Source: Promethearchaeota archaeon (GTDB taxonomy: Archaea; Asgardarchaeota; Lokiarchaeia; Sigyniarchaeales; SOKP01). From it: DNA of 64,000 nucleotides. The stretch lies in the NCBI GenBank assembly GCA_029838195.1, contig JALGVJ010000031.1, positions 1-64,000 of the forward strand. Reading direction: 5' to 3'. A program made the translations under genes and the position numbers. Below, one piece after another: positions 5,881 through 38,094 of the stretch. Position 1 is the first letter of the stretch. The number at the start of each line of letters is the position of its first letter. Under the pieces are notes generated by a model. It did not search any database. It was not told the DNA's origin and saw only the letters and a program-made list of their open reading frames with translations.

Positions 5881-7614
5881 ATGAAAAATTCCATCATTAT
5901 TAAAAACGGTATCGTGTTCGACCCGCTTAACAAAATTGAGGGAGAAAAAAAGGAGATCCATATTCAAGATGGTAAAATCGTAGAAAAAGTAAAAGGCGAT
6001 GCGAAAATCATAGATGCTTCCGGAATGATTGTCATGCCCGGTGGCGTGGACATTCATTCTCATATCGCAGGAGCTAAAGTAAATACTGGCAGGTCTTTGC
6101 GCCCAGAAGATAAACCTTTAGAATATACCATGAAAAAGACAAAATTAACGCGAAGTGGTACGGGTTTCTCAGTTCCTACCACGTGGATGACCGGCTATAA
6201 ATATGCTCAATTAGGATACACTACTGTATTTGAACCCGCCATGCCGCTACTCGAAGCTCGTCATACTCATGAAGAATTTTTGGAAACGCCCATTATTGAT
6301 AAGGGAGCTTTTCCCATTTTTGGAAATAATTGGTTTGTTCTTCAATATATAAGAGATAATGATTTAGAAAAGCTCGCAGGTTATATTGCTTGGATATTAA
6401 AAGTAACACGAGGTTATGCTATAAAAATTGTAAATCCCGGTGGCGTGGAAAATTGGGCTTGGGGAAAAAATTGTGAAAGCCTGGATGATCCTGTCGTATA
6501 TTGGGACGTGACTCCCCGTCAAATCATAGAAAGTCTGGCGAAAGCAAACGAAATGCTAGAATTACCGCATTCCATTCACGTTCATTGCAATAATTTGGGC
6601 CATCCGGGTAATGTAAATCATTCACTTGAAACGTTTGAATTGACGAAGAATATCAAAATCAATCGAAAAGACAGGGATACAAATTTCCACTGCACGCATG
6701 TTCAATTTAATGCTTACGGGGGTAAAAGTTGGAAGGATTTTAGGTCCGGCGCTCCTGAAGTTGCTGAATACGTGAACTCCCATGACCACATAACCATCGA
6801 CGCGGGACAAGTCGTTTTCACTAAATATGCGACTACCACGATGACAGGGGATGGTCCTTGGGAATTTGCTCTTCATCATTTAGGTGGCATGAGTCCTTGG
6901 GGGGCAAAACCAGGCGTGAAATGGGTAAATGGGCAAATTGAGGGAGAATCCGGGTCGGGTATCGTTCCTTATTTCTTTTCACCTAAAGTTGGTGTAAACG
7001 CCGTTCAGTGGGCAATTGGTCTCGAGCTCATGCTTCTAATTAAGAACCCATATCAAGTATTTCTAACCACGGACCATCCCAATGGTGCTCCTTTCACGAC
7101 CTATCCGACTGTTTTCAAGTGGCTCATGGATAGAAAATCCAGGAAATACATGCTGGAGAATGTCGTTTCCAAAAATGCAAGCAATAGCTCTACGCTCATA
7201 GATATTGATCGTGAATACACGTTGAATGAATTATGTATTGTCACTCGTGCGGGTACCGCAAAATGCTTGGGCTTGAAAGATAGGGGCCATTTGGGAATTG
7301 GAGCGATTGGAGACGTTTCGATTTATAAATTGGATCCTAACAATTATGATGGCAAGGCCATAGAAAAAGCATTTTCAGCAGCGGCGTATACGATAAAAGA
7401 CGGGCAAATCGTCGTAAAAGATGGTGAAATCGTGGCAACTCCCATGGGAACATTAATTTGTGCGGAGGGCAAGATTAAAGAGAATATTTATGAAGCTACC
7501 TTGAATGATATTAAATTACGCTGGAGAGATCATTATAGCATTAATTTTAATAATTATGCAGTTCAAGAAGCATATACTCCAAAAGTAAAAGTCGTGAATG
7601 GGGCTGGAAATTAA
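5881..7614 (+). CDS. fwdA: Formylmethanofuran dehydrogenase subunit A (amidohydrolase)
   Basis: 'MPGGVDIHSHIAGAKVN', 'KIVNPGG', 'HSIHVHCNNLGHPGN' and 'TTDHPNGAPF' are FwdA/FmdA signatures. Confidence 0.95.
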   Translation: MKNSIIIKNGIVFDPLNKIEGEKKEIHIQDGKIVEKVKGDAKIIDASGMIVMPGGVDIHSHIAGAKVNTGRSLRPEDKPLEYTMKKTKLTRSGTGFSVPTTWMTGYKYAQLGYTTVFEPAMPLLEARHTHEEFLETPIIDKGAFPIFGNNWFVLQYIRDNDLEKLAGYIAWILKVTRGYAIKIVNPGGVENWAWGKNCESLDDPVVYWDVTPRQIIESLAKANEMLELPHSIHVHCNNLGHPGNVNHSLETFELTKNIKINRKDRDTNFHCTHVQFNAYGGKSWKDFRSGAPEVAEYVNSHDHITIDAGQVVFTKYATTTMTGDGPWEFALHHLGGMSPWGAKPGVKWVNGQIEGESGSGIVPYFFSPKVGVNAVQWAIGLELMLLIKNPYQVFLTTDHPNGAPFTTYPTVFKWLMDRKSRKYMLENVVSKNASNSSTLIDIDREYTLNELCIVTRAGTAKCLGLKDRGHLGIGAIGDVSIYKLDPNNYDGKAIEKAFSAAAYTIKDGQIVVKDGEIVATPMGTLICAEGKIKENIYEATLNDIKLRWRDHYSINFNNYAVQEAYTPKVKVVNGAGN

Positions 7615-7809: not shown

Positions 7810-9759
7810 TTATTGGTCTTCTAATTGAATGCCCATCTTCCCGAGCTGATCTCGGATAAAATCGCTTATTTTATATGTTTTCCGTTTTCTCAATTCCAAA
7901 CGAATTTCTTTAATAAGACTTAATAATCCTAAAATTAAAGTTCCCCGCTCATCAAATGATCCTCCCAATCCTAAGTCTAATTCCTTTCTCATCCAAAATT
8001 TATCCAATTCCTCAGTAATTGAATTACTAAGCTGGAAAAGTCCCATCTCATGTAAACGAGCTTGGAGAACCGATAATAAATCCAATAAGGATTCAATGAT
8101 GGCACCTCGCTTGTCAAAACTTCCCGCTTTGTCAATATCAAGCTCGCCATCTATTCCAAGTTCACTTAACTTTCCGTGGATAAAATTAATTAAATCGTCG
8201 TGATTTCTGTTTTCCAGTTCTTGATTAAACTTATCCACGAGTTCCAATAATTCTTCAATTAATCTGCCCCTTTTATCAAAAGATCCCGCAACCTCAATGC
8301 TTAATTCTCGTTTCATCCAATAGGTTCTCAACCAACATTGGATGGTTTCACTTAAATCATAAATTTTTTTTTCTCTCAACAATTCCGATATTTTCGTGAT
8401 TAAGTTTAATAATTGTTCAATTAGGTCTCCTCTTTTATCAAAAGATCCCGCAATTTCTAAATCTAACCCCGTGGATAATTCTTTTGATAATTTCGGGAAG
8501 ATTCCGAAAATTTTATCGATTTTGAGTAGAAAATCGATGAACTCCTCTTTAAATTGTTCCGTTATGGGAGTTTTAACTTCAAATAGAGATTTGTTTAATT
8601 CTCGAAATAGCGAATAAATTTTTGCTAATGCCACTGGAGTATCGAAATCATTATCCATGGCTTCTATAATTTTTGTTTCAAATTCCTTAAATCTTTTAAT
8701 TAAACTTTCAAGTTTTTCCGAACTTTCCTCCACGGTTGTTAAATTCATTATTTTTTTTATAGTATTTTTTAATTTCTTATAATTTTTTTCTGCCTGCTGG
8801 ATTGTTTTTAAAGAATAATTAAGAGAACTTCGATAATGACTGGAAATTAAAAAAAGCCGAATGACCATGGGATTAAATTCTTTTACCACATCAGAAACAA
8901 GAAAGAAATTGCCCAAACTTTTTGACATTTTTTCATTATCCACGTTCACGAATCCATTATGAATGAAATAATTGGCAAGTTTTTTACCGGTATATGCCTC
9001 GGATTGCGCAATTTCATTCCTATGATGCGGTGATTTAAGATCTTGGCCTCCTCCATGAATATCGATTGTTTCTCCTAAATATTTGAGTACCATCGCAGAA
9101 CATTCAATGTGCCAACCCGGCCTTCCTCTTCCCCAAGGGCTTTCCCAATACGGTTCTCCTTCCTTCCATTTTTTCCATAAAACAAAATCTTTTGGATCTC
9201 GCTTTTCACCGAGAAATTTTTTATCCATTTCTAAATCTTGTTCTTCTAATTCTCCTTCTTCCACCTCGTCTTGGTCAGCCTCGTCTTTTATGTTTTGAAA
9301 TAAAGTTCTATATTTCGGAAAAGATTTCACGGCAAAATATACCGAGCCGTTGCTTTCATAAGCATGCCCCTTGGAAATCAAGCCTTCAATGATCTTAATT
9401 ATATAATCAATAGTCTCTGTAGCGCGTGGATTGAACGTTTCCTTTTTAATGTTTAAAATTCGCATAATATGTTCATATTCCTCAATATATTGATTGGCAA
9501 GCTCACGATAATCCATGTTTTTCTCCCGTGCACGATTAATTATTTTATCATCAATATCCGTGTAATTTTTCACGATTTTAACTTCAAATCCCTTAAATTC
9601 TAAATACCGCCGAATTATATCAAAAGCTACGGCTGACTTTGCATGACCTAAATGAGGACTATCATAAACGGTTGGGCCGCAGACGTACATCAAAACCTTT
9701 TTTGGAAAAATAGTCTTGAATTCCTCTTCTTTAAATGTCAAGCTGTTGTAGATTTTCAT
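7810..9759 (-). CDS. cysS: Cysteine--tRNA ligase with a 4x repeated C-terminal module
   Basis: 'YVCGPTVYD.PHLGH', 'GRPGWHIECS', 'DIHGGG.DL..PHH.NE' and KMSKS motifs. Confidence 0.97.
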   Translation of the reverse strand: MKIYNSLTFKEEEFKTIFPKKVLMYVCGPTVYDSPHLGHAKSAVAFDIIRRYLEFKGFEVKIVKNYTDIDDKIINRAREKNMDYRELANQYIEEYEHIMRILNIKKETFNPRATETIDYIIKIIEGLISKGHAYESNGSVYFAVKSFPKYRTLFQNIKDEADQDEVEEGELEEQDLEMDKKFLGEKRDPKDFVLWKKWKEGEPYWESPWGRGRPGWHIECSAMVLKYLGETIDIHGGGQDLKSPHHRNEIAQSEAYTGKKLANYFIHNGFVNVDNEKMSKSLGNFFLVSDVVKEFNPMVIRLFLISSHYRSSLNYSLKTIQQAEKNYKKLKNTIKKIMNLTTVEESSEKLESLIKRFKEFETKIIEAMDNDFDTPVALAKIYSLFRELNKSLFEVKTPITEQFKEEFIDFLLKIDKIFGIFPKLSKELSTGLDLEIAGSFDKRGDLIEQLLNLITKISELLREKKIYDLSETIQCWLRTYWMKRELSIEVAGSFDKRGRLIEELLELVDKFNQELENRNHDDLINFIHGKLSELGIDGELDIDKAGSFDKRGAIIESLLDLLSVLQARLHEMGLFQLSNSITEELDKFWMRKELDLGLGGSFDERGTLILGLLSLIKEIRLELRKRKTYKISDFIRDQLGKMGIQLEDQ

Positions 9760-15225: not shown

Positions 15226-16158
15226 TTAATTAACTAATTTCTTCTTGATATCTTTCACGCGAGAACGCAACGTGACTTCTGTTATCTTTGCAACTTCTGA
15301 GACTTCTGCTTGCGTTTTAGAATCACCTGATTTCTTTGCTGCGATATAAAGCACGCTGGCTGCGAACCCTTTAGGATCCTTACCGGTACGTACCAATCCA
15401 TTCTTGGTGGCATGTTCTAATAGGGTTAATGCTTTCTTTTGAGTCGTCATGGGTAAATCTAATTCATTTCCGAAGCGAAAGATCAACTGTTCGGCCGTTA
15501 TAGGGTGATATCTCAGACCTAATTCGGGCAATACTTCTTTTACAATAAGGCCTAACGAGCGAATGATCGTGTGTCGAGGCGTTAGAGAAGCTTCATGTAC
15601 CTCTTCAAGCAATCTTGGAAATTCGTGGATTCGAATCGCTGCGTATAAAGCGGCACAAATAAATCCGTCGATTGACCTGCCCATCGTGAGCTTCTTTTTA
15701 GCTGAAGTGGTGTATATCTTCCAAGCTGTCTCCCTGATATACTCTGGAATATTCATTTTCGAGCATAAAAGGTTTAATTTTGGTTTTGCTTCCCAGAAAT
15801 TGCGCTCGATACTGTTTACCAGAGATTTTTGAATCTTTGATAATCTGGAGAACAGTGTCTTGCCTTTTGCATCCATGAGCTGCCCTTTTGAGTCTGTTTT
15901 CACGTTGCTTATCGTTGTTCTTGGGCCAAACTCTCGCCAGCGCGTTTCCGTTATTTTTCTATTTTCTACTTCTTGGGTCGTGAAGGCACGTCGTTCATTA
16001 CCGACGATATTTCTACCGTGGACCATCCCGCAGTTTAGACAGAGAATATCCCCATCTCTGTTTTCGATGCACGGATCGTCGCAACATTTATCGTCGATGC
16101 AATCCTCTACAAAATTGTTTGTCCGAGCGTGTATTCTCGTTTTAAGGTTCCGGTTCAT
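15226..16158 (-). CDS. tfb: Transcription initiation factor IIB (TFB paralog)
   Basis: Zn ribbon (CCDD...CLNCG), B-reader 'ERRAF', and two cyclin repeats ('GRSIDGFICAALYAAIR', 'GKDPKGFAASVLYIA', 'ITEVTLRSR'). Confidence 0.95.
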   Translation of the reverse strand: MNRNLKTRIHARTNNFVEDCIDDKCCDDPCIENRDGDILCLNCGMVHGRNIVGNERRAFTTQEVENRKITETRWREFGPRTTISNVKTDSKGQLMDAKGKTLFSRLSKIQKSLVNSIERNFWEAKPKLNLLCSKMNIPEYIRETAWKIYTTSAKKKLTMGRSIDGFICAALYAAIRIHEFPRLLEEVHEASLTPRHTIIRSLGLIVKEVLPELGLRYHPITAEQLIFRFGNELDLPMTTQKKALTLLEHATKNGLVRTGKDPKGFAASVLYIAAKKSGDSKTQAEVSEVAKITEVTLRSRVKDIKKKLVN

Positions 16159-16343
16159 GATATTTTACACCTATTTTTTATTAAAATTGATTAAATTTGT
16201 GAGTGTTACATGAAAATTAATGCGAGATTAATTTTCAGATGAGTAAATATTATCGGTATTGATAATATCGAGAATTGATCAAGAACTTGTAACATAACTT
16301 TTCTTAATTAAAAAGATATTAAACCAGCTATTTAACTTTTTGG

Positions 16344-16378
16344 TTTATAAAATAAAGATTTCCCACTTTTGTGGGAAA
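16344..16378 (-). promoter_or_regulatory. Candidate tfb TATA box with an adjacent palindromic operator
   Basis: TTTCCCAC-TTTT-GTGGGAAA (16359-16378) lies immediately upstream, on the minus strand, of TTTATAAA (16344-16351). Confidence 0.45.
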
Positions 16379-16587
16379 AAATAAGTGATATTTGGGAGGT
16401 TAATTTTGCGTTTCATGAGGGTCTATACATTCATGTAAACTTATTTGAAAACAAGGACACATTGGATATTTAGGAAATTCTAAAGTATAAGAGGCAGTTG
16501 CACTAAAAAATTGAATTATTTTCCATAATTGGAGAAAGAATATCAAAATAAAAGGAGAAAAGTCCATTAAAAGAGTCCAAGGGCATT

Positions 16588-18102
16588 TTATGGCGTTTTT
16601 GATTTTATTTTATACTTGGGAATCGATTTATATTTTTTAAGTTGCGCTTTCAATTGCTCTTGTTCTTTTTTAATTTGTTGGCTCTCAATTTTAAGCTTAT
16701 TTCTTTCCTTTTTTATTAAAACCTTTTCATTTTCTATCATATTCCTTTCTGCCTCCAGTTTTTTAACTTGTTCTTTTAGCCTTGATTCAAGGTTCCTTTT
16801 TCGGCGTTCTAATTCTTTTAGCTCATCATTTAATTTTCTTGCGGTATTTTCTAATTTATTACAGGCATTTTCTAATACTTTTTTTCTATTTTCTAACCCT
16901 TCAATAGTAGATTGAATGCGTTTTAATCGATTATCTTCTTTTTCGTGTAAGCTTTTAAGGGAAATTCTTTCTTTTTTGATTTGTTTTCGAACATCATCTA
17001 ATTTCTTTCGTTTTTTATTCAAATTTTTAAATTTATCACTAAGATCCTCTTCCTTTTTTTGTAGAGATTTTTCAAACTTATCTAATTTTTTTTTTTGATC
17101 ATTTATCGCTTTCTTTTCTTTATTAATGGCATCGTGTAAATTTGAAATCTCCTTTTTCAAGGCATCTCGATTTTTTTTGAGCGATTCCACCTCTTTTTTT
17201 AAATTATCCAGATGGTTTTTTAACGCATTTAATTTTTTATTAGATAAATCTATTTCTCGTTCCAAATTATCCTTTTTCTTCTCTAAATCTCGAATTTTGG
17301 AATTGATCTGATGTAATTTATTTTCTTCTTGTTTTTTACGTTGGTCAAGATTTTTTTGTTCCTGTTTTAGTTTTTCTTTAAAATTTTCCAATTGTTTTTT
17401 TTGATTTTCTAAGTTTTTGAACCCGTCTTCTAAATCTTTCTTTTTATCACGTAGATTTTCTTTAGTAATTCTTATTTTCTTTATTTGTTGCTCCCTATTT
17501 TTGTTTTCTTCCGCTATCTTGTTTTGTAAATCATTTAATTGCCTTTTCAAGCTTTTAATTTCGGAAATTAAATCCGATTTCTGGCGCGTTAAATCTCTCA
17601 CATCATTTTCTAATCCCATTTTAGTTTTTTCTAATTTTTCTCCAGCAGTTTCCAATTTAGGGATTTTTGAGGAAATTTGTTTGATTTCAGAAGTAAAATT
17701 CTTTCTCTTTTTTTCTCTAAGAGCAATCTCCTTGTTAAGAGCATCTAATTCTTTCTGTTTAATTTGAATTTGGTGGTCCACGTGTGAAATTCCTTGAGAT
17801 AACCTCCTCTTTTCTCCCTCAATTTTTTTTTGAATATCTTCTAATTCTTGAAGCAAGGATTGCTTTTTATACGTAAGACTTCTTACCTCTAATTCACTCT
17901 GTTTTCGGAATTTTTCTAATTCGTCCAAATTTACTTGATAGTGTTGAATTTTCTCCAGAGTTGACTCCCATTCTTTACGTTCAGCTTCTAAACGCATTCG
18001 TTCTTTTTTTATTTTCTTTAATAATGCTTGATTTTCCACCGTTGTTTTAGGGATCGAGTCTTGCTCATCAATCACGTGCTTGGGAGGAATTTTATCGCTC
18101 AT
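16588..18102 (-). CDS. Long coiled-coil protein (504 aa, K/E/L/Q-rich)
   Basis: Continuous heptad pattern over about 470 aa with almost no Pro/Gly and no globular or ATPase motif. Confidence 0.85.
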   Translation of the reverse strand: MSDKIPPKHVIDEQDSIPKTTVENQALLKKIKKERMRLEAERKEWESTLEKIQHYQVNLDELEKFRKQSELEVRSLTYKKQSLLQELEDIQKKIEGEKRRLSQGISHVDHQIQIKQKELDALNKEIALREKKRKNFTSEIKQISSKIPKLETAGEKLEKTKMGLENDVRDLTRQKSDLISEIKSLKRQLNDLQNKIAEENKNREQQIKKIRITKENLRDKKKDLEDGFKNLENQKKQLENFKEKLKQEQKNLDQRKKQEENKLHQINSKIRDLEKKKDNLEREIDLSNKKLNALKNHLDNLKKEVESLKKNRDALKKEISNLHDAINKEKKAINDQKKKLDKFEKSLQKKEEDLSDKFKNLNKKRKKLDDVRKQIKKERISLKSLHEKEDNRLKRIQSTIEGLENRKKVLENACNKLENTARKLNDELKELERRKRNLESRLKEQVKKLEAERNMIENEKVLIKKERNKLKIESQQIKKEQEQLKAQLKKYKSIPKYKIKSKTP

Positions 18103-18257: not shown

Positions 18258-18614
18258 ATGAAAATGAATTTTGATGAGGAAGAAGAATTTGATGAAGATT
18301 TAGAGGAGAAGACGCCCGAACCAGCCATGCGTTCTAAAACGCCTGCGGTCTCAGCTGGTGGTGAGAAATTAAGTTTATTTTTCTTATCCACGGTAGGGCC
18401 CGGCGAAAAACGGCAAAAGTTATCCGTGGATAATGGAAATTTAGTCGGAGATATAAAACAAACGGTTGGAAATATTTTTGGATTAGATCCATCCGATTTT
18501 CACTTATCAGCTGGAGGCGTGACCATGGATGATTCTCAACCATTATCAAATTATAATGTTCGCGATGGAGATGAAATTTTATTAATTCCTGCTTCTACAG
18601 CGGGTAGGAGCTAA
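18258..18614 (+). CDS. Ubiquitin-fold modifier, UFM1-like, with an acidic N-terminal tail and C-terminal ...TAG-RS
   Basis: Beta-grasp pattern. The segment 'MDDSQPLSNYNVRDGDEILLIP' is ubiquitin-like and the C-terminus matches the UFM1 register. It is the first gene of the E1/E2/JAMM/RING cluster. Confidence 0.9.
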   Translation: MKMNFDEEEEFDEDLEEKTPEPAMRSKTPAVSAGGEKLSLFFLSTVGPGEKRQKLSVDNGNLVGDIKQTVGNIFGLDPSDFHLSAGGVTMDDSQPLSNYNVRDGDEILLIPASTAGRS

Positions 18615-18730
18615 TTAAAATCTTAATTTTTGAGCCAATTTTTTTTTAAATTTAATTACTTAGGGTCATATTTAGTAAATTTTAGAGAATATAATGAAAT
18701 AATAGCAATCGATCTTGAGGGGAAATTCTA

Positions 18731-19954
18731 ATGGATGAGAAATCAGAATTTTTTACCGAAGAATTAACGGAAAAAGAGCGGGAATTATATGACCGTCAAT
18801 TTAGATTAGAAGGGTGGTCTCAAAGCATTATTAAAAATTCCCGCGTTTTAATTGCGGGAATAGGTGGTTTAGGATGCGAAATTGCTAAAAATTTAACCAT
18901 GGTAGGCGTGGGACACTTGGATTTAGTAGATCTTGATATAATTGAACATTCTAATTTAAATCGGCAGATTCTATTTGTCGGGGCCAAAATGGGAGAACCA
19001 AAAGCTAAAGCGGCGGTAGAAATATTAAGAAAAATTAATCCAAACATAGAAATTGATGGTTACCATTGCTCCTTAGAGCGTTTAGATCCAATCCTTTATA
19101 AAAAAGCGGATCTTATCATTGGAGGGCTTGATTCAATGAATGCGAGGTTAAATTTGAATGCTCAGTGTGTTCGATTTGGTAAGCCCTTAGTAGATGGAGG
19201 AGTTGCGGGTTACCATGGTCATTTTTATACGGTATTTCCTCATGATAATGCTTGTTATGAATGTAATCCCCTTCCTATTGCCGAAATGAATGAGATGGCA
19301 GCATGCACGGTTGTAGGAATTCCCAGAAAACGAGTACATTGCGTGTTTAAAGCATCCATGGCATTTACCGAACAATATGAACAAGAACCCAATCCGAAAA
19401 ACGTGGAACACGTAAAGTTTCTAAAACAGCATGCGAATGAATTGGTAAAAAAGCATGATTTTTATCCTTTATTTACAAAAGATGAAATCGTGAAAATTAT
19501 TGATCGGCATGATCCAGGGATTATTACAATTAACGCAGTTATCTCAGCAATGCAATCTCATGAAGCCGTAAAAATTTTGCATTGGATGAGAGGAAATACA
19601 TCTTTAGGAGTACCTGTCAAAACTTACTTGATTTATAATGCCATGACTCAAAAACTCTATGCAGTAGAAAAAAAACGTAATCCTAATTGCAGGCAATGTG
19701 GAAATTCTGTAAAAAGAGTGGATGTCTCCCTCTCTCAGAAAGATCCATGTTCTAAAATAATTGAAATATTATTGGAACAAGGATATAGGGTTGATCCCGA
19801 CTTAGAACCTACTCTTACCATCATGGATTTCAATGATATTACAGAAATTGACTTGGAAAAAGATTCCATTCAAAATGGTTTACGAGATTTAGAATTAATA
19901 ACAGCGGCAGGCTTTGATAAAGGAGAAATATTTATTAATTTACATCTTTCTTAA
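18731..19954 (+). CDS. Ubiquitin-like activating enzyme E1 (ThiF/MoeB fold with Uba2/Uba3-like Cys domain)
   Basis: 'LYDRQ', GxGxxG 'GIGGLG', 'D.IEHSNLNRQ', two CxxC motifs (CYEC, CRQC), catalytic 'ACTVVGIPRKRVHC' and a C-terminal UFD-sized domain. Confidence 0.95.
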   Translation: MDEKSEFFTEELTEKERELYDRQFRLEGWSQSIIKNSRVLIAGIGGLGCEIAKNLTMVGVGHLDLVDLDIIEHSNLNRQILFVGAKMGEPKAKAAVEILRKINPNIEIDGYHCSLERLDPILYKKADLIIGGLDSMNARLNLNAQCVRFGKPLVDGGVAGYHGHFYTVFPHDNACYECNPLPIAEMNEMAACTVVGIPRKRVHCVFKASMAFTEQYEQEPNPKNVEHVKFLKQHANELVKKHDFYPLFTKDEIVKIIDRHDPGIITINAVISAMQSHEAVKILHWMRGNTSLGVPVKTYLIYNAMTQKLYAVEKKRNPNCRQCGNSVKRVDVSLSQKDPCSKIIEILLEQGYRVDPDLEPTLTIMDFNDITEIDLEKDSIQNGLRDLELITAAGFDKGEIFINLHLS

Positions 19955-20053: not shown

Positions 20054-20581
20054 GTGAGTATAAGGAGTTCGAGAATAACTCAAGAGTATGCTGCCCTAAA
20101 GAAATTGCTAAAAAAAGGAACCATCATGCAATTAAAACCATTTGATTCAAAAAGGAAAAGTATCGATCATCTTGCCATTACATTTAAAGGTCCAAAAGGG
20201 ACTGCGTATCAAGGAGGGCTATTCAAACTTGAAATCAAATTCCCCGCCAGGTATCCAAACCAACCACCTTTTGTTCGGCTACACACTCCCATTTGGCACC
20301 CGAACTTCTGGCCTAAACCCTCCGAATATCCTGGACAAAGAAATATATGTCTTGCTTTGGTAGATCCTTCTTTAATTGGGAAGAAGGGAGGGTGGAGTCC
20401 TTCAAAAACCGCTGTGACGGTTGTCCAAGCAATAATTGCCATGTTAAATACGAAAGGATTGTTCATTAATCCAAAAGACGTGTTTAATAAAAAAGCAGCC
20501 ATTGAAATGATGGAACGTCCTGATTATTTTGAAAAAAAAGTTCGGCACCTTGTAAAAAAATATGCGAATAAAAAATGGTGA
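20054..20581 (+). CDS. Ubiquitin-conjugating enzyme E2 (UBC fold)
   Basis: 'GPKGTAYQGGLFKL.I.FP..YP..PP.V....PIWHPN', catalytic 'NICL' and 'WSP'. Confidence 0.95.
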   Translation: MSIRSSRITQEYAALKKLLKKGTIMQLKPFDSKRKSIDHLAITFKGPKGTAYQGGLFKLEIKFPARYPNQPPFVRLHTPIWHPNFWPKPSEYPGQRNICLALVDPSLIGKKGGWSPSKTAVTVVQAIIAMLNTKGLFINPKDVFNKKAAIEMMERPDYFEKKVRHLVKKYANKKW

Positions 20582-21372
20582 TGTTCATGGGTTCAAATGA
20601 ATTTAATAAAGAAGAAATTAAACGAAAAATAAAAGAAAAAATAAAAGAGCGTATAACGCGAGAACTCATCGAAGAGATTTATCAAGAATTAAATTTTGAA
20701 AAAAATGAATTAATTGAAGAAATAACCTCTGTATTGGATTTAGAACTAGTCCCTTCCATGCCTTCCAAGAGCTTTAAGGAACCTTATAAAACAAATAAGA
20801 ATGCTAAGAGACCTAAGATTTCAATTGAAATTAAACCCATCTTAAAGATAGCTAGCCATGCCATTAAATATGCTAATCCTAAAATACCTAAAGAAGAATG
20901 GGTTGAGGTTATAGGGCTTCTGGCCGGCAAGGAGGATAAAAATAAGGATATCCTTTTTATTAAAGATGCTTATCCCATGGGACATGGATCCGCTTTGCAT
21001 GCTGAAATAAAAGATTATAAAAACTATGAGAGAGCATATCAAGACATTCGAAAGAATAACCTCTTTATATGTGGGTGGTATCACTCGCATCCTTCATATG
21101 GCACCTTCATGAGTCAAGAAGACTTAACAACTCAAGAAAGATATCAAAAACTATGGAATAAATCCGTTGCGTTAGTAATCGATCCCACCAAAATTAATGG
21201 TCGTTCTCATGGATTTAAGATATTCAAGACGGGTGTAGCTTCTAATACATGGGAAGAAATACCTCATGAAATAAAAGGAAATCTTTCTCCGGCACTTTTA
21301 CCTGAATTAATTGAATTCATTAATCCCATTATGGATGGAAAAGCAATTTATCTCGAATATGATGAAGAATAA
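20575..21372 (+). CDS. JAMM/MPN+ metallo-isopeptidase (Rpn11/CSN5-like) with an N-terminal helical extension
   Basis: 'EVIGLLAG' Glu plus 'GWYHSHPSYGTFMSQED' (HxH-x7-S-x2-D) and 'VALVIDP'. The start overlaps the E2 stop. Confidence 0.95.
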   Translation: MVMFMGSNEFNKEEIKRKIKEKIKERITRELIEEIYQELNFEKNELIEEITSVLDLELVPSMPSKSFKEPYKTNKNAKRPKISIEIKPILKIASHAIKYANPKIPKEEWVEVIGLLAGKEDKNKDILFIKDAYPMGHGSALHAEIKDYKNYERAYQDIRKNNLFICGWYHSHPSYGTFMSQEDLTTQERYQKLWNKSVALVIDPTKINGRSHGFKIFKTGVASNTWEEIPHEIKGNLSPALLPELIEFINPIMDGKAIYLEYDEE

Positions 21373-22541
21373 TGCTAAAAAAGCGCACGATCGTTTTTTC
21401 TATAGTGATTTTAACTATTGCTGTTATATATGGCTTTTTTATTGAGAATTCAAGGAATATTTTTTGTAGTGTAGTCTTAATTGGCACGTGGTTTTTATTC
21501 GTGCTAAAATATTTTGAAAAAAGAAAGCATTACAATGAATTTAATTCTCCCCATAATACGCCCTTTTTCTTGTTTGCCCCTCTCTTTCTTGGATTATTTT
21601 ATAATTTCTGGAGTTATTATACGGGAATATTGGGAGAAAATCTCTTTAATAATAATGGAGAGAGTTTCTTTTATCTTAGTCCTTGGAGCTTGATTCTTGC
21701 TTTTCCGTGGTTAGTACATGGATTAAATACCGTGAGAAAATGCTTTAAAGATTTTACACTCGTATATATTTTTAAAACAAGATCGATGGGGGGTAAAAAA
21801 TTTGGCACAATATATTCTATTTGTTTGCTTGTTTTAATCTTGCTTCAAGTAATTTACTTACCCGTCATTATGGATGCTCTTTCCTTCATTGTGTCACCCT
21901 CCCATTCCATGTATCCCCTTGCTTATTTTGATGTAATGCTCTTCATTTTTACCACGACGTTGGGAAGCATTTTTCTCTGGCATGGAGTAATCCAGCCAAG
22001 AAGACGTACTCTTCCTTCCGTGACCCCAACTTATGTTTCTCGTAGAAGAAGAGAACTCGATCAATTAAGCAGGAGGGCTTCCCAAGCACCAACAACAGTA
22101 AAAACATCACGTAGGACTCCCCGAATAACTACTACATCAGGAAGCTCACGCTCAAGTTATCAGAGAACAACACCACGGAGGATGGTTCCAGTATCCTCAA
22201 CTTCTAAAAGAAAGGATAAATCAAGGTCATCTGGTCGAGCAAAAAGCTCATCAATGGATCAATATAAACCAAAGGCTGGTATTTTAACTCTCGACGATTT
22301 CAAATGCATTTTTTGTTTCAAACTTCCTTCCCTTTCTGCAGATAAAAATAGAGGAATAGTATTATGCCCTAAATGCAAGCATCCGGCTCACGAAGATGAA
22401 TTTAGAGAATGGACTAAAGTATCTTCCTTATGTTCACGCTGTGATGCCCCTCTTCCTTCCAATTTCATCAGAAATCCCACTATCATTCCATTAAAGAAAT
22501 ATATAGAAGTCATTGAAGACTTCAAGAAAAGAAAAAAATAA
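21372..22541 (+). CDS. Multi-pass membrane protein with a C-terminal RING-type Zn finger (putative E3 ligase)
   Basis: About 6 hydrophobic helices (aa 5-205), an S/T/R-rich linker, then 'CIFC..CPKCKHPAHEDEFREW......CSRC'. TAATG overlap with the JAMM gene. Confidence 0.85.
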   Translation: MLKKRTIVFSIVILTIAVIYGFFIENSRNIFCSVVLIGTWFLFVLKYFEKRKHYNEFNSPHNTPFFLFAPLFLGLFYNFWSYYTGILGENLFNNNGESFFYLSPWSLILAFPWLVHGLNTVRKCFKDFTLVYIFKTRSMGGKKFGTIYSICLLVLILLQVIYLPVIMDALSFIVSPSHSMYPLAYFDVMLFIFTTTLGSIFLWHGVIQPRRRTLPSVTPTYVSRRRRELDQLSRRASQAPTTVKTSRRTPRITTTSGSSRSSYQRTTPRRMVPVSSTSKRKDKSRSSGRAKSSSMDQYKPKAGILTLDDFKCIFCFKLPSLSADKNRGIVLCPKCKHPAHEDEFREWTKVSSLCSRCDAPLPSNFIRNPTIIPLKKYIEVIEDFKKRKK

Positions 22542-34322: not shown

Positions 34323-34627
34323 AAGGTATGAAAAAAAAGGAATTTTAAAAATTTTATTTCAAAAAATAACAATTATTCTACTTTCAACAAAAAAAACATT
34401 TATAGATAAACTCTAATATATTATTTATAAATAAGAATAATTTAGACTATATTTTGCATGATGACCTTTATTTAATTAGGAATAATAATTAGGCGGGAAA
34501 TATTAGGAAACATTTAATTTCCCCTCTCCTTCTTTTATTCACGACAATATTTCGCATCTTGAAATTTTGCTGTAAAACGCTGCATATATTCGTAAATTTC
34601 ACATCTGAAATGCTAAAATCTGGGAAG

Positions 34628-35422
34628 TCATGTAGTATTTTCACTAAGATTAATATTAATTTTCCTTATTAAGAAATATATAGCGAGCAACCCGCCCCAA
34701 ATAATTATAGTTATCAATGTCATCCACTCAAAAAATGTATGTAGTAAAAATGCTGGACGTTCAAGTTGGAGATTTTGATTATAATATCTTGCTAAATCAG
34801 TTACATCATATGGATAAAACAGTAGTAAAGCAAAAAATACAAATACTATTGCTCCGATAATGGAGAAACCCCAATGAATCTTTTTCTCTTTATCAATAAG
34901 AATTGCTATTGAAAATAGAACAACTGCAAGCATTCCACCAAAAAAGAATATTAAAGAAACAACCCAATGGGCGTCATAATAATTCATTGGAAATACTCCA
35001 ACGAAGGATCCACCAATACATGAAATCACTCCAATATAACCCGCTAAATAGGCAAACTTATTCTCCATATATAATGCTAATCCAATATAATAAACTAACG
35101 TAATGACACCACTAATAATTAAACAAATATTGAAAAAGATAGCTAGTTCAGAAACTCCAACTTCTCCAAGCATGGAAATACTATGATTAAGGAAACTATA
35201 TCTTTCTCCTTTTTTTCCAGTATATGCAATCGATGGGATAACGAAAGCAATAGTAAGAATAATTGTAGCTATTATTCCCCAATATGGTAATGCAATTTTT
35301 TTAAATGGTTTTTTCAATATTGGTCTCAAGTTTATAAAGTAATCGGTTATTGCAAGAATGATTGTACCTACTGCAAGAATAGATATAGCTATTATACCCC
35401 AAGAGAATTCATAAAGAACCAT
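34628..35422 (-). CDS. DUF998 / Frag1-DRAM-Sfk1-like membrane protein
   Basis: 'YSFLNHSISMLG', 'FFN..LI', 'GVFP....AH', 'FEW'; about 7 TM helices. Confidence 0.7.
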   Translation of the reverse strand: MVLYEFSWGIIAISILAVGTIILAITDYFINLRPILKKPFKKIALPYWGIIATIILTIAFVIPSIAYTGKKGERYSFLNHSISMLGEVGVSELAIFFNICLIISGVITLVYYIGLALYMENKFAYLAGYIGVISCIGGSFVGVFPMNYYDAHWVVSLIFFFGGMLAVVLFSIAILIDKEKKIHWGFSIIGAIVFVFFALLLFYPYDVTDLARYYNQNLQLERPAFLLHTFFEWMTLITIIIWGGLLAIYFLIRKININLSENTT

Positions 35423-35488
35423 GATATTTTTTAAAAAAAAAAACCTTTAAAAGTTTTTTGGATTTATAATTTTGAAGTTGAAAAACCA

Positions 35489-35776
35489 TCACTTTATTAT
35501 CACATGGTCGCAAATAGGAAAATATGCTATAAGATCGATTACTGGAGTCCCATCAAAAGCATCTGTTCCGCCTACCTTAACGATACCTTTTTTCTTATTT
35601 CCTTCTAATATACCATATGTAGTTAAGGCGATAGGATTTGGACGATATTCGGTCCGAGTAGCAAAAATCCCCGTGACTGGAGCATTTTCCCCGTAAAGTA
35701 TTTCGGTTGGCCACTCAAAAGCATTCCGATACTCCTCAGAATCCATTTCTTGAGTCCACCAGAAGACTATAACATG
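35489..35776 (-). pseudogene. 5'-truncated TrmO/TsaA-family (tRNA m6t6A37 methyltransferase-like) gene
   Basis: In-frame 'HVIVFWW...GIFATRTEYRPNPIALT...DAFDGTPVIDL'. The N-terminal third is missing. Confidence 0.75.
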
Positions 35777-35812
35777 AATTGCACGATTATCTTTATTTAA
35801 ATTATAAAGAAA

Positions 35813-36238
35813 TTAGGATGGAAAATAGTATGTGATATTCAATTTACTTTCTCCTTCTTTTATCCAAGCTAAAATCTCATTCTGTGAGATTTTACTGTAA
35901 ATAATAATACCATCCTTAAAAATACCATGCAAGAATGAATTTCCTTCTTTTAAACCATTTTTTAATTCTTGAAATGTTATTGTTTTTGGTTGGACCAAAC
36001 CCTCACTATATTGATAAGCTTCTAAAAACCTTTCCTTCATGGATGCAAATGATTTATCAAAAACGCATAACAAATCGATATCACTAAATTGAGTATAAGT
36101 TCCTTTAGCAAGTGAACCAAAAATGAGGACTAATTTCAAATTAGTTTTATCAATATTTTTTAAAAAATGTTCTAATTCAATCAGATGCGGATAATTCTTC
36201 AATTTTTCTTTTAACAAATTCAATGATACTTTTTGCAT
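35813..36238 (-). CDS. Minimal nucleotidyltransferase (MNT antitoxin)
   Basis: 'IFGSLAKG.....SDIDLL' (GS-x10-DxD). Confidence 0.9.
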   Translation of the reverse strand: MQKVSLNLLKEKLKNYPHLIELEHFLKNIDKTNLKLVLIFGSLAKGTYTQFSDIDLLCVFDKSFASMKERFLEAYQYSEGLVQPKTITFQELKNGLKEGNSFLHGIFKDGIIIYSKISQNEILAWIKEGESKLNITYYFPS

Positions 36239-36617
36239 TATCTATACATTCCTTAGCTGTTTTTTTATTATAAAATTCTGCGGGATAACCTGAAGCAAAT
36301 CCATTAGGATATCTTGGCTGGATATAATGACGATCTAATTCTTGAGATTTTTCATGCAATTCATTATACATGGCTTCATCAAACGCTTGTTTGCTTCCGG
36401 TTTCATCGATAACAATATTTTTCCACTTTTTTAAAAGATAAATTAACCCATGACCCCAAGCTTCAACGTTCAAGGATAATAATAACGCTTTTAATGCTTT
36501 TTCAGCAGCCTGTTGTGCTTGAAAACACGTCCATTCAAAATGACCGCTCTTCATGCTATCAACAGCGGCTTGATAATCTTCTATAGCTTGATTTAGCCAA
36601 TCTCTAAATCTATTCAT
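36177..36617 (-). CDS. HEPN domain protein (partner of the MNT)
   Basis: 'W.CF.AQQAAEKALKA', 'WGH.L', 'LDRHYI.PRYP'. Overlaps the MNT start. Confidence 0.9.
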   Translation of the reverse strand: MNRFRDWLNQAIEDYQAAVDSMKSGHFEWTCFQAQQAAEKALKALLLSLNVEAWGHGLIYLLKKWKNIVIDETGSKQAFDEAMYNELHEKSQELDRHYIQPRYPNGFASGYPAEFYNKKTAKECIDNAKSIIEFVKRKIEELSASD

Positions 36618-36759
36618 TCGATTTATCTATATATATTATAAGTATTAAAATAATTATTTTTTTTGATCTAATTAAATTCCTTTCATCTCATTAAACCTAA
36701 AATGCGTGCCTTATTTTAAAAAAAAAGAACCATTTTAGAATTCATGTTTTATAAAATTA

Positions 36760-38094
36760 TCATCCAACTACTCCTTCTGATTTCTTAATAAAGAATAATG
36801 GTACTAAAGAGATAAGCCCTAAAAAAGCCCCTACAATGATAAGGGGAGGCGTAGGAATATAGCCCGGCTCTCCATTAATAATGACGGGAATTCCATATTG
36901 TTGGATGACGAAAGAGCCTATAAAAGGGCCTATTACCATGGGTATTAACACCATAAAAATTAATCGAACGCCTTGGAACTTTCCTATACTTTCTGCCGGG
37001 TATTTATCTTGCATCCATGCTCCTCGCACAACGCCTGTTAATGTGGAAAACGTGAGATTCAACAAGTAAAAAATGACAACCATCCAAAAATCTTTAACAA
37101 TCGCAAAAATGAAAGATAAAATCATGGTAATAATGGTGTATATAAACATTAATGTTTTACGATTAATATTCTTAATGAGAAATCCAATAATTAGTACTAA
37201 TATCGTAGAGCCACCGATAATGATTAATCCGATTATACTTATGATCGTTTTCGAGAACCCCAAATAATGCTCCATGTATATAAATAAATAAGGAAAAAAC
37301 ACCATGGATGCAATTCCACCCAATGCCATATTAAGAAATAATAAATATAACACTTTATTTTCCTTTACATCTTGAATGGAAATGAGTTCTTTCAATTCAT
37401 TTACTATTTTTTTTCTTGGCCTTCGTTCCTCTTCCACTGGAATATTTTCTTTTATCATCCCTCCCGCAATTAAGCCGCTAATGGATACAATGCCCCCTAA
37501 GATGTAAAAGAAAGTAAAATAACCAAATTCATCTATAATGACACCCGCAACGCCTAATGCGATTAAATTTGCAATTAAGACCGTAGCTGAATTAATGCTA
37601 TTAATCCGATTACGATTAGAAGGATGACCTATATCAGTAATCCAAGCATTATAAGCCGCATCATTGGCTGTAGAACCGAAAAATGTCATGATAGCATCCA
37701 TTATAACCACCATGATGACAGCAATGCTAATTACTTGAATTAACGCCGTTAATGGAAAAAGCGCAGTTATTATGCCCCAAATTACGTATCCAAATAAAAT
37801 ATACGGCTTCCTTCTTCCCATTTTAGTATAGGTGCGATCACTTAATGTTCCCATTATTAAAGTGGTAATCGTGGCTACTACGGCAGAAACTGCCACCATC
37901 CAAGCAACAGGTCTCGGATCAGGCGTTAGTTCATCAAAAACAAAGGTATTAAACCAGCTATTTTCAACGGCCCAAGCTATTTGTCCTGCGATTCCCAAAA
38001 TAAGTATTATCGCAACGTTTTGCCTTCCAATCTTGACTATTTGACCATTTTCAAGCGTTTCTGTTCTTTCATCTATAACATTATTTTTTTCCAT
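36760..38094 (-). CDS. MFS transporter
   Basis: About 12 TM helices and 'MGTLSDRT.TKMGRRKPYI'. Confidence 0.9.
   Translation of the reverse strand: MEKNNVIDERTETLENGQIVKIGRQNVAIILILGIAGQIAWAVENSWFNTFVFDELTPDPRPVAWMVAVSAVVATITTLIMGTLSDRTYTKMGRRKPYILFGYVIWGIITALFPLTALIQVISIAVIMVVIMDAIMTFFGSTANDAAYNAWITDIGHPSNRNRINSINSATVLIANLIALGVAGVIIDEFGYFTFFYILGGIVSISGLIAGGMIKENIPVEEERRPRKKIVNELKELISIQDVKENKVLYLLFLNMALGGIASMVFFPYLFIYMEHYLGFSKTIISIIGLIIIGGSTILVLIIGFLIKNINRKTLMFIYTIITMILSFIFAIVKDFWMVVIFYLLNLTFSTLTGVVRGAWMQDKYPAESIGKFQGVRLIFMVLIPMVIGPFIGSFVIQQYGIPVIINGEPGYIPTPPLIIVGAFLGLISLVPLFFIKKSEGVVG

Follow-up and report, generated by a model that had tools for sequence, protein, structure and literature searches.

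We analyzed a stretch of 64,000 nucleotides (hereafter, the window) from a metagenome-assembled genome of a Promethearchaeota archaeon (96.6% complete, 7.9% contamination), namely positions 1 to 64,000 of contig JALGVJ010000031.1 of GenBank assembly GCA_029838195.1. A short open reading frame (ORF) at 18258..18614 on the plus strand encodes a ubiquitin-like protein (Ubl) and heads a co-directional cluster with the order Ubl, E1, E2, JAMM protease and membrane RING-like protein. It is likely that this Ubl is a ubiquitin-family beta-grasp modifier, that it belongs to a distinct and widespread subfamily ending in Ala-Gly, and that it serves a Lokiarchaeal operon of ubiquitin type operating through the mechanism proposed below. 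A sequence-only reading of the gene had instead proposed an intermediate between UFM1, ubiquitin and SUMO and a candidate ancestor-like UFM1. The features of the locus are the following:

18258..18614, plus strand: Ubl gene, 118 amino acids plus stop (ORF and translation)
18258..18362, plus strand: residues 1-35, N-terminal extension, acidic (FDEE..DEDLEE) and then KTP..SKTPA, predicted to be disordered
18363..18590, plus strand: residues 36-111, predicted beta-grasp core with a family-specific STxGPGEK loop and an FHLSxGG segment (AF2, Foldseek, VIA)
18591..18605, plus strand: residues 112-116, C-terminal tail ASTAG, conserved in homologues
18603-18605, plus strand: GGT codon of G116, predicted site of conjugation and cleavage
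18606..18614, plus strand: AGG AGC TAA, a two-residue Arg-Ser extension and stop, probably a lineage-specific stop displacement
18731..19954, plus strand: E1, 407 amino acids, ThiF-family adenylation domain plus further domains (PF00899, E 2.5e-59)
20054..20581, plus strand: E2, 175 amino acids, canonical UBC fold with HPN...Cys (PF00179, UQ_con, E 3.5e-25)
20575..21372, plus strand: Rpn11-like JAMM/MPN+ metalloprotease, 265 amino acids (PF01398, E 1.5e-12)
21372..22541, plus strand: polytopic membrane protein, 389 amino acids, with a C-terminal Cys/His RING-like finger, a candidate E3

A ubiquitin-like gene and its operon partners

The Ubl ORF is a real and intact gene. The identical protein is on record on four contigs, and the public names of its homologues are Lokiarchaeota or Promethearchaeota. 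The runs carrying the sequence are hydrothermal-vent metagenomes, and no RNA run was among the public runs listed as holding it. The database form of the protein (P0002) is 116 amino acids long, 100% identical, and begins at the second methionine. Because of this form and of the N-termini of orthologues, which start with MSFD or MNFD, the second ATG at 18264 is the likelier true start (116 amino acids).

The N-terminal extension is acidic and was modelled with low confidence by AlphaFold 2 (AF2), its predicted local distance difference test score (pLDDT) lying at 45-54, with <50 for residues 1-18 and about 54 for residues 21-30, which agrees with the earlier description of an acidic and probably disordered tail. 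In an alignment of 60 homologues (A1), K27, P29 and G35 are invariant, D12, E13, L15, S26 and T28 are conserved in at least 90%, and the SKTP motif was found in 116 of 121 close homologues. This extension therefore appears to be conserved across the Ala-Gly family and not to be junk. The invariant Lys27 might serve as a chain acceptor, or SKTP as a docking motif. Some family members, such as P0120, repeat the motif SKTPEPG two or three times.

Judged from their sequence relatives, the E1, the E2 and the protease are of ubiquitin type and not of UBA5/UFC1/UFSP type. The best solved relatives of the E1 are SAE2 and UBA3 (E about 1e-36), and its residues 31-337 align with UBA3 35-352, past the adenylation domain; UBA7 and UBA1 come next, then MoeB (4e-31), with UBA5 at only 1e-18. 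For the E2, the best solved relatives are UBE2 15, UBE2T, UBE2R and UBC9. The JAMM motif (E111, H170-S-H172, S180, D183) is invariant in 40 homologues. The membrane protein contains hydrophobic segments and a CxxC...CxxCxHxxH...CxxC pattern, and it is called RING-like only on this Cys/His pattern and on weak Pfam matches (zf-RING_16, E 0.024).

The locus thus unites the modifier with an E1 and a UBC-type E2, with a RING-like protein and with an Rpn11-like JAMM, and this arrangement extends to other genomes. The same gene order was found on contigs L008 and L012, where the Ubl has no tail, and on the Hodarchaeota contig L007, which carries two Ubls of the family (6001-6384 and 8255-8587). A gene of the size of the membrane protein occupies the same position on all three. 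On the other side of the Ubl gene and divergent from it, the minus strand of the window (15226-18102) encodes a Lys-rich coiled-coil protein of 504-522 amino acids, with a TFIIB-family gene beyond. Both genes are retained at this position in the closest two relatives (L012, 1630-4840; L013, 183-4682), and L006, L007 and L008 present genes of 378-607 amino acids without Pfam matches at the position of the coiled-coil gene.

The Ala-Gly end and its variable tail

The Ubl ends in GDEILLIPASTAG-RS-stop (short form ...LLIPASTAG-RS), with codons GCG GGT AGG AGC TAA at 18600-18614. Both the DNA and the ORF translation confirm the initial observation that the C-terminus ends in AG-RS and has no di-Gly. 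P111, S113, A115 and G116 are invariant among the 60 homologues, and A112 and T114 are conserved in at least 90% of them. Distant representatives (39-50% identity) retain IPxSxAG, and the terminal Ala-Gly is unchanged across hundreds of relatives. The terminal Gly is thus conserved in orthologues, and its invariance supports the earlier claim of a conjugatable modifier with a single reactive Gly. In the ubiquitin register (gap-free HMMER alignment, offset 40), G116 and A115 take the places of Gly76 and Gly75, respectively. The family therefore lacks the C-terminal Gly-Gly of ubiquitin, keeping the terminal Gly and replacing the penultimate one by Ala.

What follows this Gly is variable. Among 121 close homologues, 75 (62%) end directly at the Gly, whereas 16 present one additional residue, 25 two and 5 three, and these residues are mutually unrelated in sequence. 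The tail of two residues after the Gly, which had been equated with that of UFM1, is present in the window's Ubl but absent in that 62%. In its nearest relatives (L012 and L013, 88-90% identical), the Gly codon and stop read GGA TAG and GGT TAG, versus GGT AGG AGC TAA in the window. Because TAG directly follows the Gly codon in both, the Arg-Ser tail likely results from a recent stop-codon displacement, and it appears to be lineage-specific and incidental, not a conserved pro-peptide.

The same codons raise the question of whether the tail is an artifact. The relatives' GGT TAG G and the window's GGT AGG A would fit the loss of a single T, such that a slip during assembly or sequencing at GGT(T)AGG would hide a protein ending at Gly, and the source is a metagenome-assembled genome with the contamination given above. 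We consider such a slip improbable, since the identical protein is recorded on four contigs and a contig of run X3 shows the same letters over 18584-18747, although its depth is low (2.6) and it is not independent, as it possibly comes from the source sample. Moreover, such short tails are present in 46 of the 121 homologues and are therefore normal for the family. Between the Ubl and E1 genes, public contigs differ from the window by one T in a poly-T run at 18648 and by an A>G change at 18707, which is probably strain variation.

Placement of the Ala-Gly family among beta-grasp modifiers

Sequence profiles place the Ubl in the ubiquitin family. The Pfam model PF00240 scored it at 27.5 bits, relative to a curated cut-off of 25.4, and at 28.1 bits in the genome-level search; the model also matched all 60 homologues (best E 7e-8). 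Searching the PDB with phmmer, we found ubiquitin and polyubiquitin, with residues 52-109 aligned to ubiquitin 12-69 without gaps, and it is in this region that the sequence-only reading had rightly noted an echo of ubiquitin. Using hhalign, the family profile matched ubiquitin with a probability of 80% (E 1.3e-5) and a Gly-Gly Ubl of the same genome with 27%; as a calibration, UFM1 matched ubiquitin with 0.6%. Our own hidden Markov model (HMM) of the family, run with all filters off, scored ubiquitin at 20.1 bits and the Gly-Gly Ubls of the genome at 12-15.5 bits.

The predicted structure leads to the same placement. An AF2 model built on the 60 homologues gave a core (residues 36-111) with a pLDDT of 82-95, consisting of strands 37-44, 51-58, 81-85 and 106-111 and a helix at 63-74. 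The top PDB matches in Foldseek were structures of Caldiarchaeum ubiquitin (CsUb; 6FNO, 6FNN and 6FJ7) with E 5e-8 to 2e-7 and root-mean-square deviations of 1.6-3.7 A over 74-81 columns; next came ISG15, ubiquitin, NEDD8 and Hub1. The best 50 rows of each structure search were all ubiquitin-type Ubls, and in the ESM Atlas, searches by language model and by shape returned Promethearchaeota clusters labelled ubiquitin. The model thus predicts a beta-grasp fold that is superposable on ubiquitin-type modifiers.

Other branches of the superfamily received little signal. The Rad60-SLD model (PF11976) did not match the Ubl itself and matched 10 of the 60 homologues weakly (best E 0.011), so that the proposed likeness to SUMO comes down to an analogy between disordered N-tails. 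ThiS gave weak matches in 5 of the 60 homologues (best E 0.072), and two family members carry the JGI name 'molybdopterin converting factor small subunit'. MoeB is also among the relatives of the E1 (E 3.7e-31). These matches could be taken to indicate a sulfur carrier of the SAMP/URM1/MoaD kind, or a dual-function protein, activated by a ThiF-type E1 and for which conjugation would be secondary or absent. This is the least probable of the alternatives that we considered: the modifier passes the ubiquitin model and not ThiS or MoaD, the operon holds a UBC E2, a RING-like protein and an Rpn11-like JAMM, and the alignment of the E1 to UBA3 extends across the catalytic-cysteine domain region. In addition, the genome possesses separate short E1s of MoeB/ThiF type (frames of 249-272 amino acids).

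The alignment to UFM1 on which the sequence-only reading relied is reproducible (16-17 identities, a single gap) but not significant by profile methods. Using a UFM1 query verified to be 100% identical to proteins publicly named ubiquitin-fold modifier 1, hhalign aligned Ubl residues 37-116 with UFM1 3-83 with one gap and 20% identity over 80 columns, at a probability of 1.0% (pairwise E 0.053). A global BLOSUM62 alignment yielded 17 identities, and BLASTP found short out-of-register pieces only. The Pfam Ufm1 model (PF03671) gave no match for the Ubl at E<=1 and none for the 60 homologues at E<=10. With our own HMMs, the median score was 1.5 bits (best 6.5) for the family under the UFM1 model and 1.8 bits (best 9.2) for UFM1 under the family model.

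Residue shuffles revealed a finer pattern. Nine family members compared to UFM1 presented global z-scores of 4.3-7.1 and local z-scores of 0.7-4.8, and the same nine compared to ubiquitin presented 6.0-8.5 and 5.7-12.1, respectively. Ubiquitin itself reached only 3.7 (global) and 1.2 (local) against UFM1, and the Gly-Gly Ubls of the genome 1.4-2.4 (global). The local z-score to UFM1 drops to 2.1 without the last 12 residues, and about half of the local signal is contributed by LIPxxxxG. These values point to a faint but systematic extra likeness to UFM1, largely located in the L-I-P-x4-Gly end, with ubiquitin always clearly nearer.

It is conceivable that the Ala-Gly family represents the Asgard lineage that gave rise to eukaryotic UFM1, as an ancestor-like UFM1 or as a UFM1/ubiquitin intermediate. 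The collinear alignment, the shuffle scores above those of ubiquitin and of the Gly-Gly Ubls, and the ending shared by both proteins (a hydrophobic residue, I-P-x4-Gly and a single Gly) are compatible with this scenario, under which UFM1 would have begun as a ubiquitin-type tag with canonical E1, E2, JAMM and RING and would later have switched to UBA5, UFC1 and UFSP. We nevertheless judge it very unlikely. The hhalign probability was 1% versus 80% for ubiquitin, the Pfam Ufm1 model matched no member, our HMMs gave medians of about 1.5-1.8 bits, and BLASTP found no piece in register. The enzymes of the operon point away from UFM1 as well, as UBA5 is a more distant relative of the E1 than SAE2, UBA3 and even MoeB are, the E2 is a UQ_con protein and the protease a JAMM. 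Our searches of this 96.6% complete genome found no Ufm1, UFC1 or UFSP (Peptidase_C78 above noise), and Ufm1 was not matched in the 301 Asgard genomes searched. The genome's single weak Ufm1 match (E 0.17) falls in the frame of a HAD-type hydrolase and was rejected as noise. In the Atlas, every non-UFM1 cluster nearest to UFM1 scores below 0.9, and Promethearchaeota Ubls are not among these clusters. Finally, the Gly-plus-two tail is not conserved, and a single terminal Gly or a short tail is no evidence of UFM1 ancestry, as both recur among Ubls. The interpretation as a UFM1 ancestor or intermediate is therefore not supported, since profile searches place the Ubl with ubiquitin-type Ubls and the best matches of the structure searches are such Ubls too.

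Two further observations touch on this question. UFM1 has been reported to be exclusive to eukaryotes, with UFL1 and DDRGK1 being of Asgard origin (PMC10183829). The genome of the window (G000) encodes on contig 54 (L014 439-2799, minus strand) a protein of 786 amino acids with DDRGK-like, UFL1-like and PCI winged-helix repeats and a C-terminal Vps28, an architecture earlier reported for Asgard archaea (bioRxiv 10.1101/2020.10.19.343400). The presence of this UFL1/DDRGK-like protein would suit an Asgard origin of UFM1 within the Ala-Gly family, but its gene lies on another contig, is fused to Vps28 and is not linked to the Ubl operon. In addition, the text of a 2026 structural survey lists 'Ufm1 homologues' in nine Asgard clades, with partial and multi-region matches and without naming the proteins (PMC12962969). 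Fused and tandem forms of the Ala-Gly family would fit such matches, although this does not establish that the two are identical. That these homologues are the Ala-Gly family, and that the family is the source lineage of UFM1, seems to us a slim possibility.

Several points weigh against the placement of the Ala-Gly family as a ubiquitin-type modifier with an operon of its own. The global z-scores of the family to UFM1 exceed those of ubiquitin and of the Gly-Gly Ubls, and two members carry the MoaD-like names given by JGI. The Ile44 patch of ubiquitin is not retained: Leu8, Ile44, His68 and Val70 correspond to P48, S84, L108 and I110 (alignment register only), and the near-invariant Ser at the Ile44 position (S84, at least 90%, HMMER register) implies that ubiquitin-type receptors may not apply. 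Gly75 of eukaryotic ubiquitin matters for recognition by E1 and deubiquitinases, and the penultimate Ala therefore implies that the enzymes must have adapted. The relative L006 presents Ubl, E1 and E2 with no adjoining JAMM or RING gene; a JAMM homologue is found elsewhere on that contig. Finally, cleavage, activation and conjugation in this family are steps that we only infer. We still consider a ubiquitin-family modifier of a distinct Ala-Gly subfamily to be the most convincing interpretation.

Processing, distribution and related systems

Natural tandem proteins indicate how the Ubl might be processed. An exhaustive representative search identified two such proteins, whose contigs are only about 1.2 kb long and hence without gene context:

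P0243, L009 59-1177 and also L010: three head-to-tail Ubl units
P0244, L011 205-957: two head-to-tail Ubl units

The acidic N-tail, the SKTP motif and the core are repeated in every unit. The next unit begins immediately after ...STAG or ...SQAG, and the C-terminus of the whole protein reads STAG-VL or STAG-IY. These forms resemble polyubiquitin-type precursors and would therefore require an endoprotease that cuts after Ala-Gly. Five further proteins (P0261, P0247, P0249, P0250 and P0253) present the Ubl at their very C-terminus, ending in ...S(T/R)AG, behind long N-terminal parts, which in P0261 is a HerA/FtsK-like P-loop ATPase (PF01935, E 3e-14) and in P0247 is weakly Roadblock/LC7-like; these proteins could be genuine fusions or could result from merged gene calls.

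The JAMM of the operon is a plausible candidate for this activity. CsRpn11 of Caldiarchaeum cleaves the CsUb precursor after its terminal Gly and also cleaves conjugates (PMC6043591). We modelled the complex of JAMM residues 75-265 with Ubl residues 35-118 and obtained a score of 0.85, relative to 0.00 for the best control; 58 of 80 solved complexes and 2 of 110 mismatched pairs attained this mark, counts that hold only roughly because our own alignments were used. Three runs agreed in at least 99% of the contacts, with a partner pLDDT of at least 90, and the modelled interface places Ubl residues 108-118 and 44-49 (the STVGPG loop) on JAMM residues E111, H170, H172, S180 and D183. Since a similar complex (6FNO) has been solved, this score may reflect likeness and is not a proof. 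The earlier claim of a pro-protein matured by the JAMM can thus be retained in part: the JAMM is a reasonable trimmer, considering CsRpn11, the tandem forms and the model, but the two-residue tail is not a conserved pro-peptide. Trimming would not be its sole role, because the operon keeps the JAMM in relatives with a tailless Ubl (L008 and L012); by analogy, deconjugation would be the obvious other one.

We propose that the JAMM would remove whatever follows Gly116, which is Arg-Ser in the window and 0-3 residues or a further Ubl unit elsewhere. The SAE2/UBA3-like E1 would then adenylate Gly116 and take it on as a thioester, the UBC-type E2 would receive the Ubl, and the membrane-anchored RING-like protein would direct its transfer to lysines of substrates. 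The JAMM would also reverse the conjugates. A displacement of the stop codon such as the one that created Arg-Ser would be tolerated because the end is trimmed anyway.

Of the 301 Asgard genomes searched, 122 contain the Ala-Gly family, which occurs in 9 of 30 GTDB families. It is present in 60 of 68 genomes of the GTDB family to which the window's genome belongs and in 0 of 76 searched genomes of another. Many Lokiarchaeal genomes possess three to five Ala-Gly paralogues, often with two of them about 2.2 kb apart beside the E1, and the genome of the window has one copy. This genome also encodes two Gly-Gly Ubls:

contig 8, 1709-1966 (L002 1450-1707): Gly-Gly Ubl ending in ...ATQAGGKM
contig 87 (L003 1279-1698): Gly-Gly Ubl ending in ...AVMNGG

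Because these two Gly-Gly Ubls lie elsewhere in the genome, the Ala-Gly family is a separate line of paralogues with its own operon. About 6 kb from the contig-8 Ubl, we found a short E1 of MoeB/ThiF type (8079-8771). Contig 72 (34582-37391) carries a second E1 (a frame of 536 amino acids) adjoining a UBC E2, which is in two adjacent pieces (36950-37231 and 37275-37391) and may be frameshifted or split. The Gly-Gly Ubls and this second E1-E2 pair suggest parallel tagging systems that are kept apart by their C-termini.

Ubiquitin operons with this arrangement have been described in Caldiarchaeum and in Asgard archaea (PMC5654768, PMC6043591, PMC9192718). The system of Caldiarchaeum (PMC5654768, PMC6043591) is similar to the one described here in that CsUb is the best structural match and in that it combines a Ubl, an E1, an E2, a RING protein and an Rpn11-like JAMM that removes the C-terminal extension of the modifier precursor, a step that would also occur in the Ala-Gly family. 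CsUb differs in ending with Gly-Gly and a nine-residue extension, as opposed to Ala-Gly and 0-3 variable residues, and the Ala-Gly family possesses the conserved acidic/SKTP N-terminal extension. In addition, the RING-like protein of the Ala-Gly operon is a polytopic membrane protein of about 390 amino acids, whereas that of Caldiarchaeum is small and soluble. The cascade of Helarchaeia, which has been reconstituted with a Gly-Gly pro-ubiquitin (bioRxiv 10.1101/2023.07.25.550441), belongs to the same phylum and has the same type of E1, E2 and RING as well as a pro-form tail (Ser-Pro-Lys-Asn) after the reactive Gly, but its ubiquitin has the conserved di-glycine.

Among eukaryotic modifiers, ubiquitin, NEDD8 and ISG15 share PF00240 with the Ala-Gly Ubl and an equal length from strand 5 to the terminal Gly. 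Tandem head-to-tail genes are common to the Ala-Gly family and polyubiquitin, and Ala occupies the position of ubiquitin Arg72 in the Ala-Gly Ubl (HMMER register) as it does in NEDD8. Relative to ubiquitin, NEDD8 and ISG15, the Ala-Gly Ubl presents about 20-22% identity, Ala at Gly75, Ser at Ile44, a longer loop between strands 1 and 2 (STxGPGEK) and an N-terminal extension of ~35 residues in each tandem unit. UFM1 shares the beta-grasp fold, a single C-terminal Gly after a non-Gly residue and the I-P-x4-G spacing with the Ala-Gly Ubl, and the two-residue tail with the window's Ubl (this one sequence; the single Gly alone is a trait of the family), but it has no profile-level similarity to it, and the Ubl's E1, E2 and protease are of ubiquitin type. 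SUMO likewise has a disordered N-tail with a conserved Lys before the beta-grasp domain; the Ala-Gly Ubl lacks a SUMO-type consensus and the Gly-Gly. Our literature searches for an Ala-Gly-ended Lokiarchaeal ubiquitin found no description, which is no proof that none exists. The subfamily thus appears to be undescribed, the operon type itself being known.

Asgard ubiquitin operons serve the reconstruction of how eukaryotic ubiquitylation began, and the archaeal modifier has been treated in published work as a Gly-Gly protein (PMC6043591; bioRxiv 10.1101/2023.07.25.550441). Our results suggest that the modifier encoded beside the E1, E2, JAMM and RING genes of Lokiarchaeia and of several further Asgard families belongs to a separate Ala-Gly subfamily. 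Proteomic approaches based on di-Gly remnants would miss conjugates of this modifier. As read from the sequence, trypsin would instead leave a remnant of 14 residues, DGDEILLIPASTAG, after R102.

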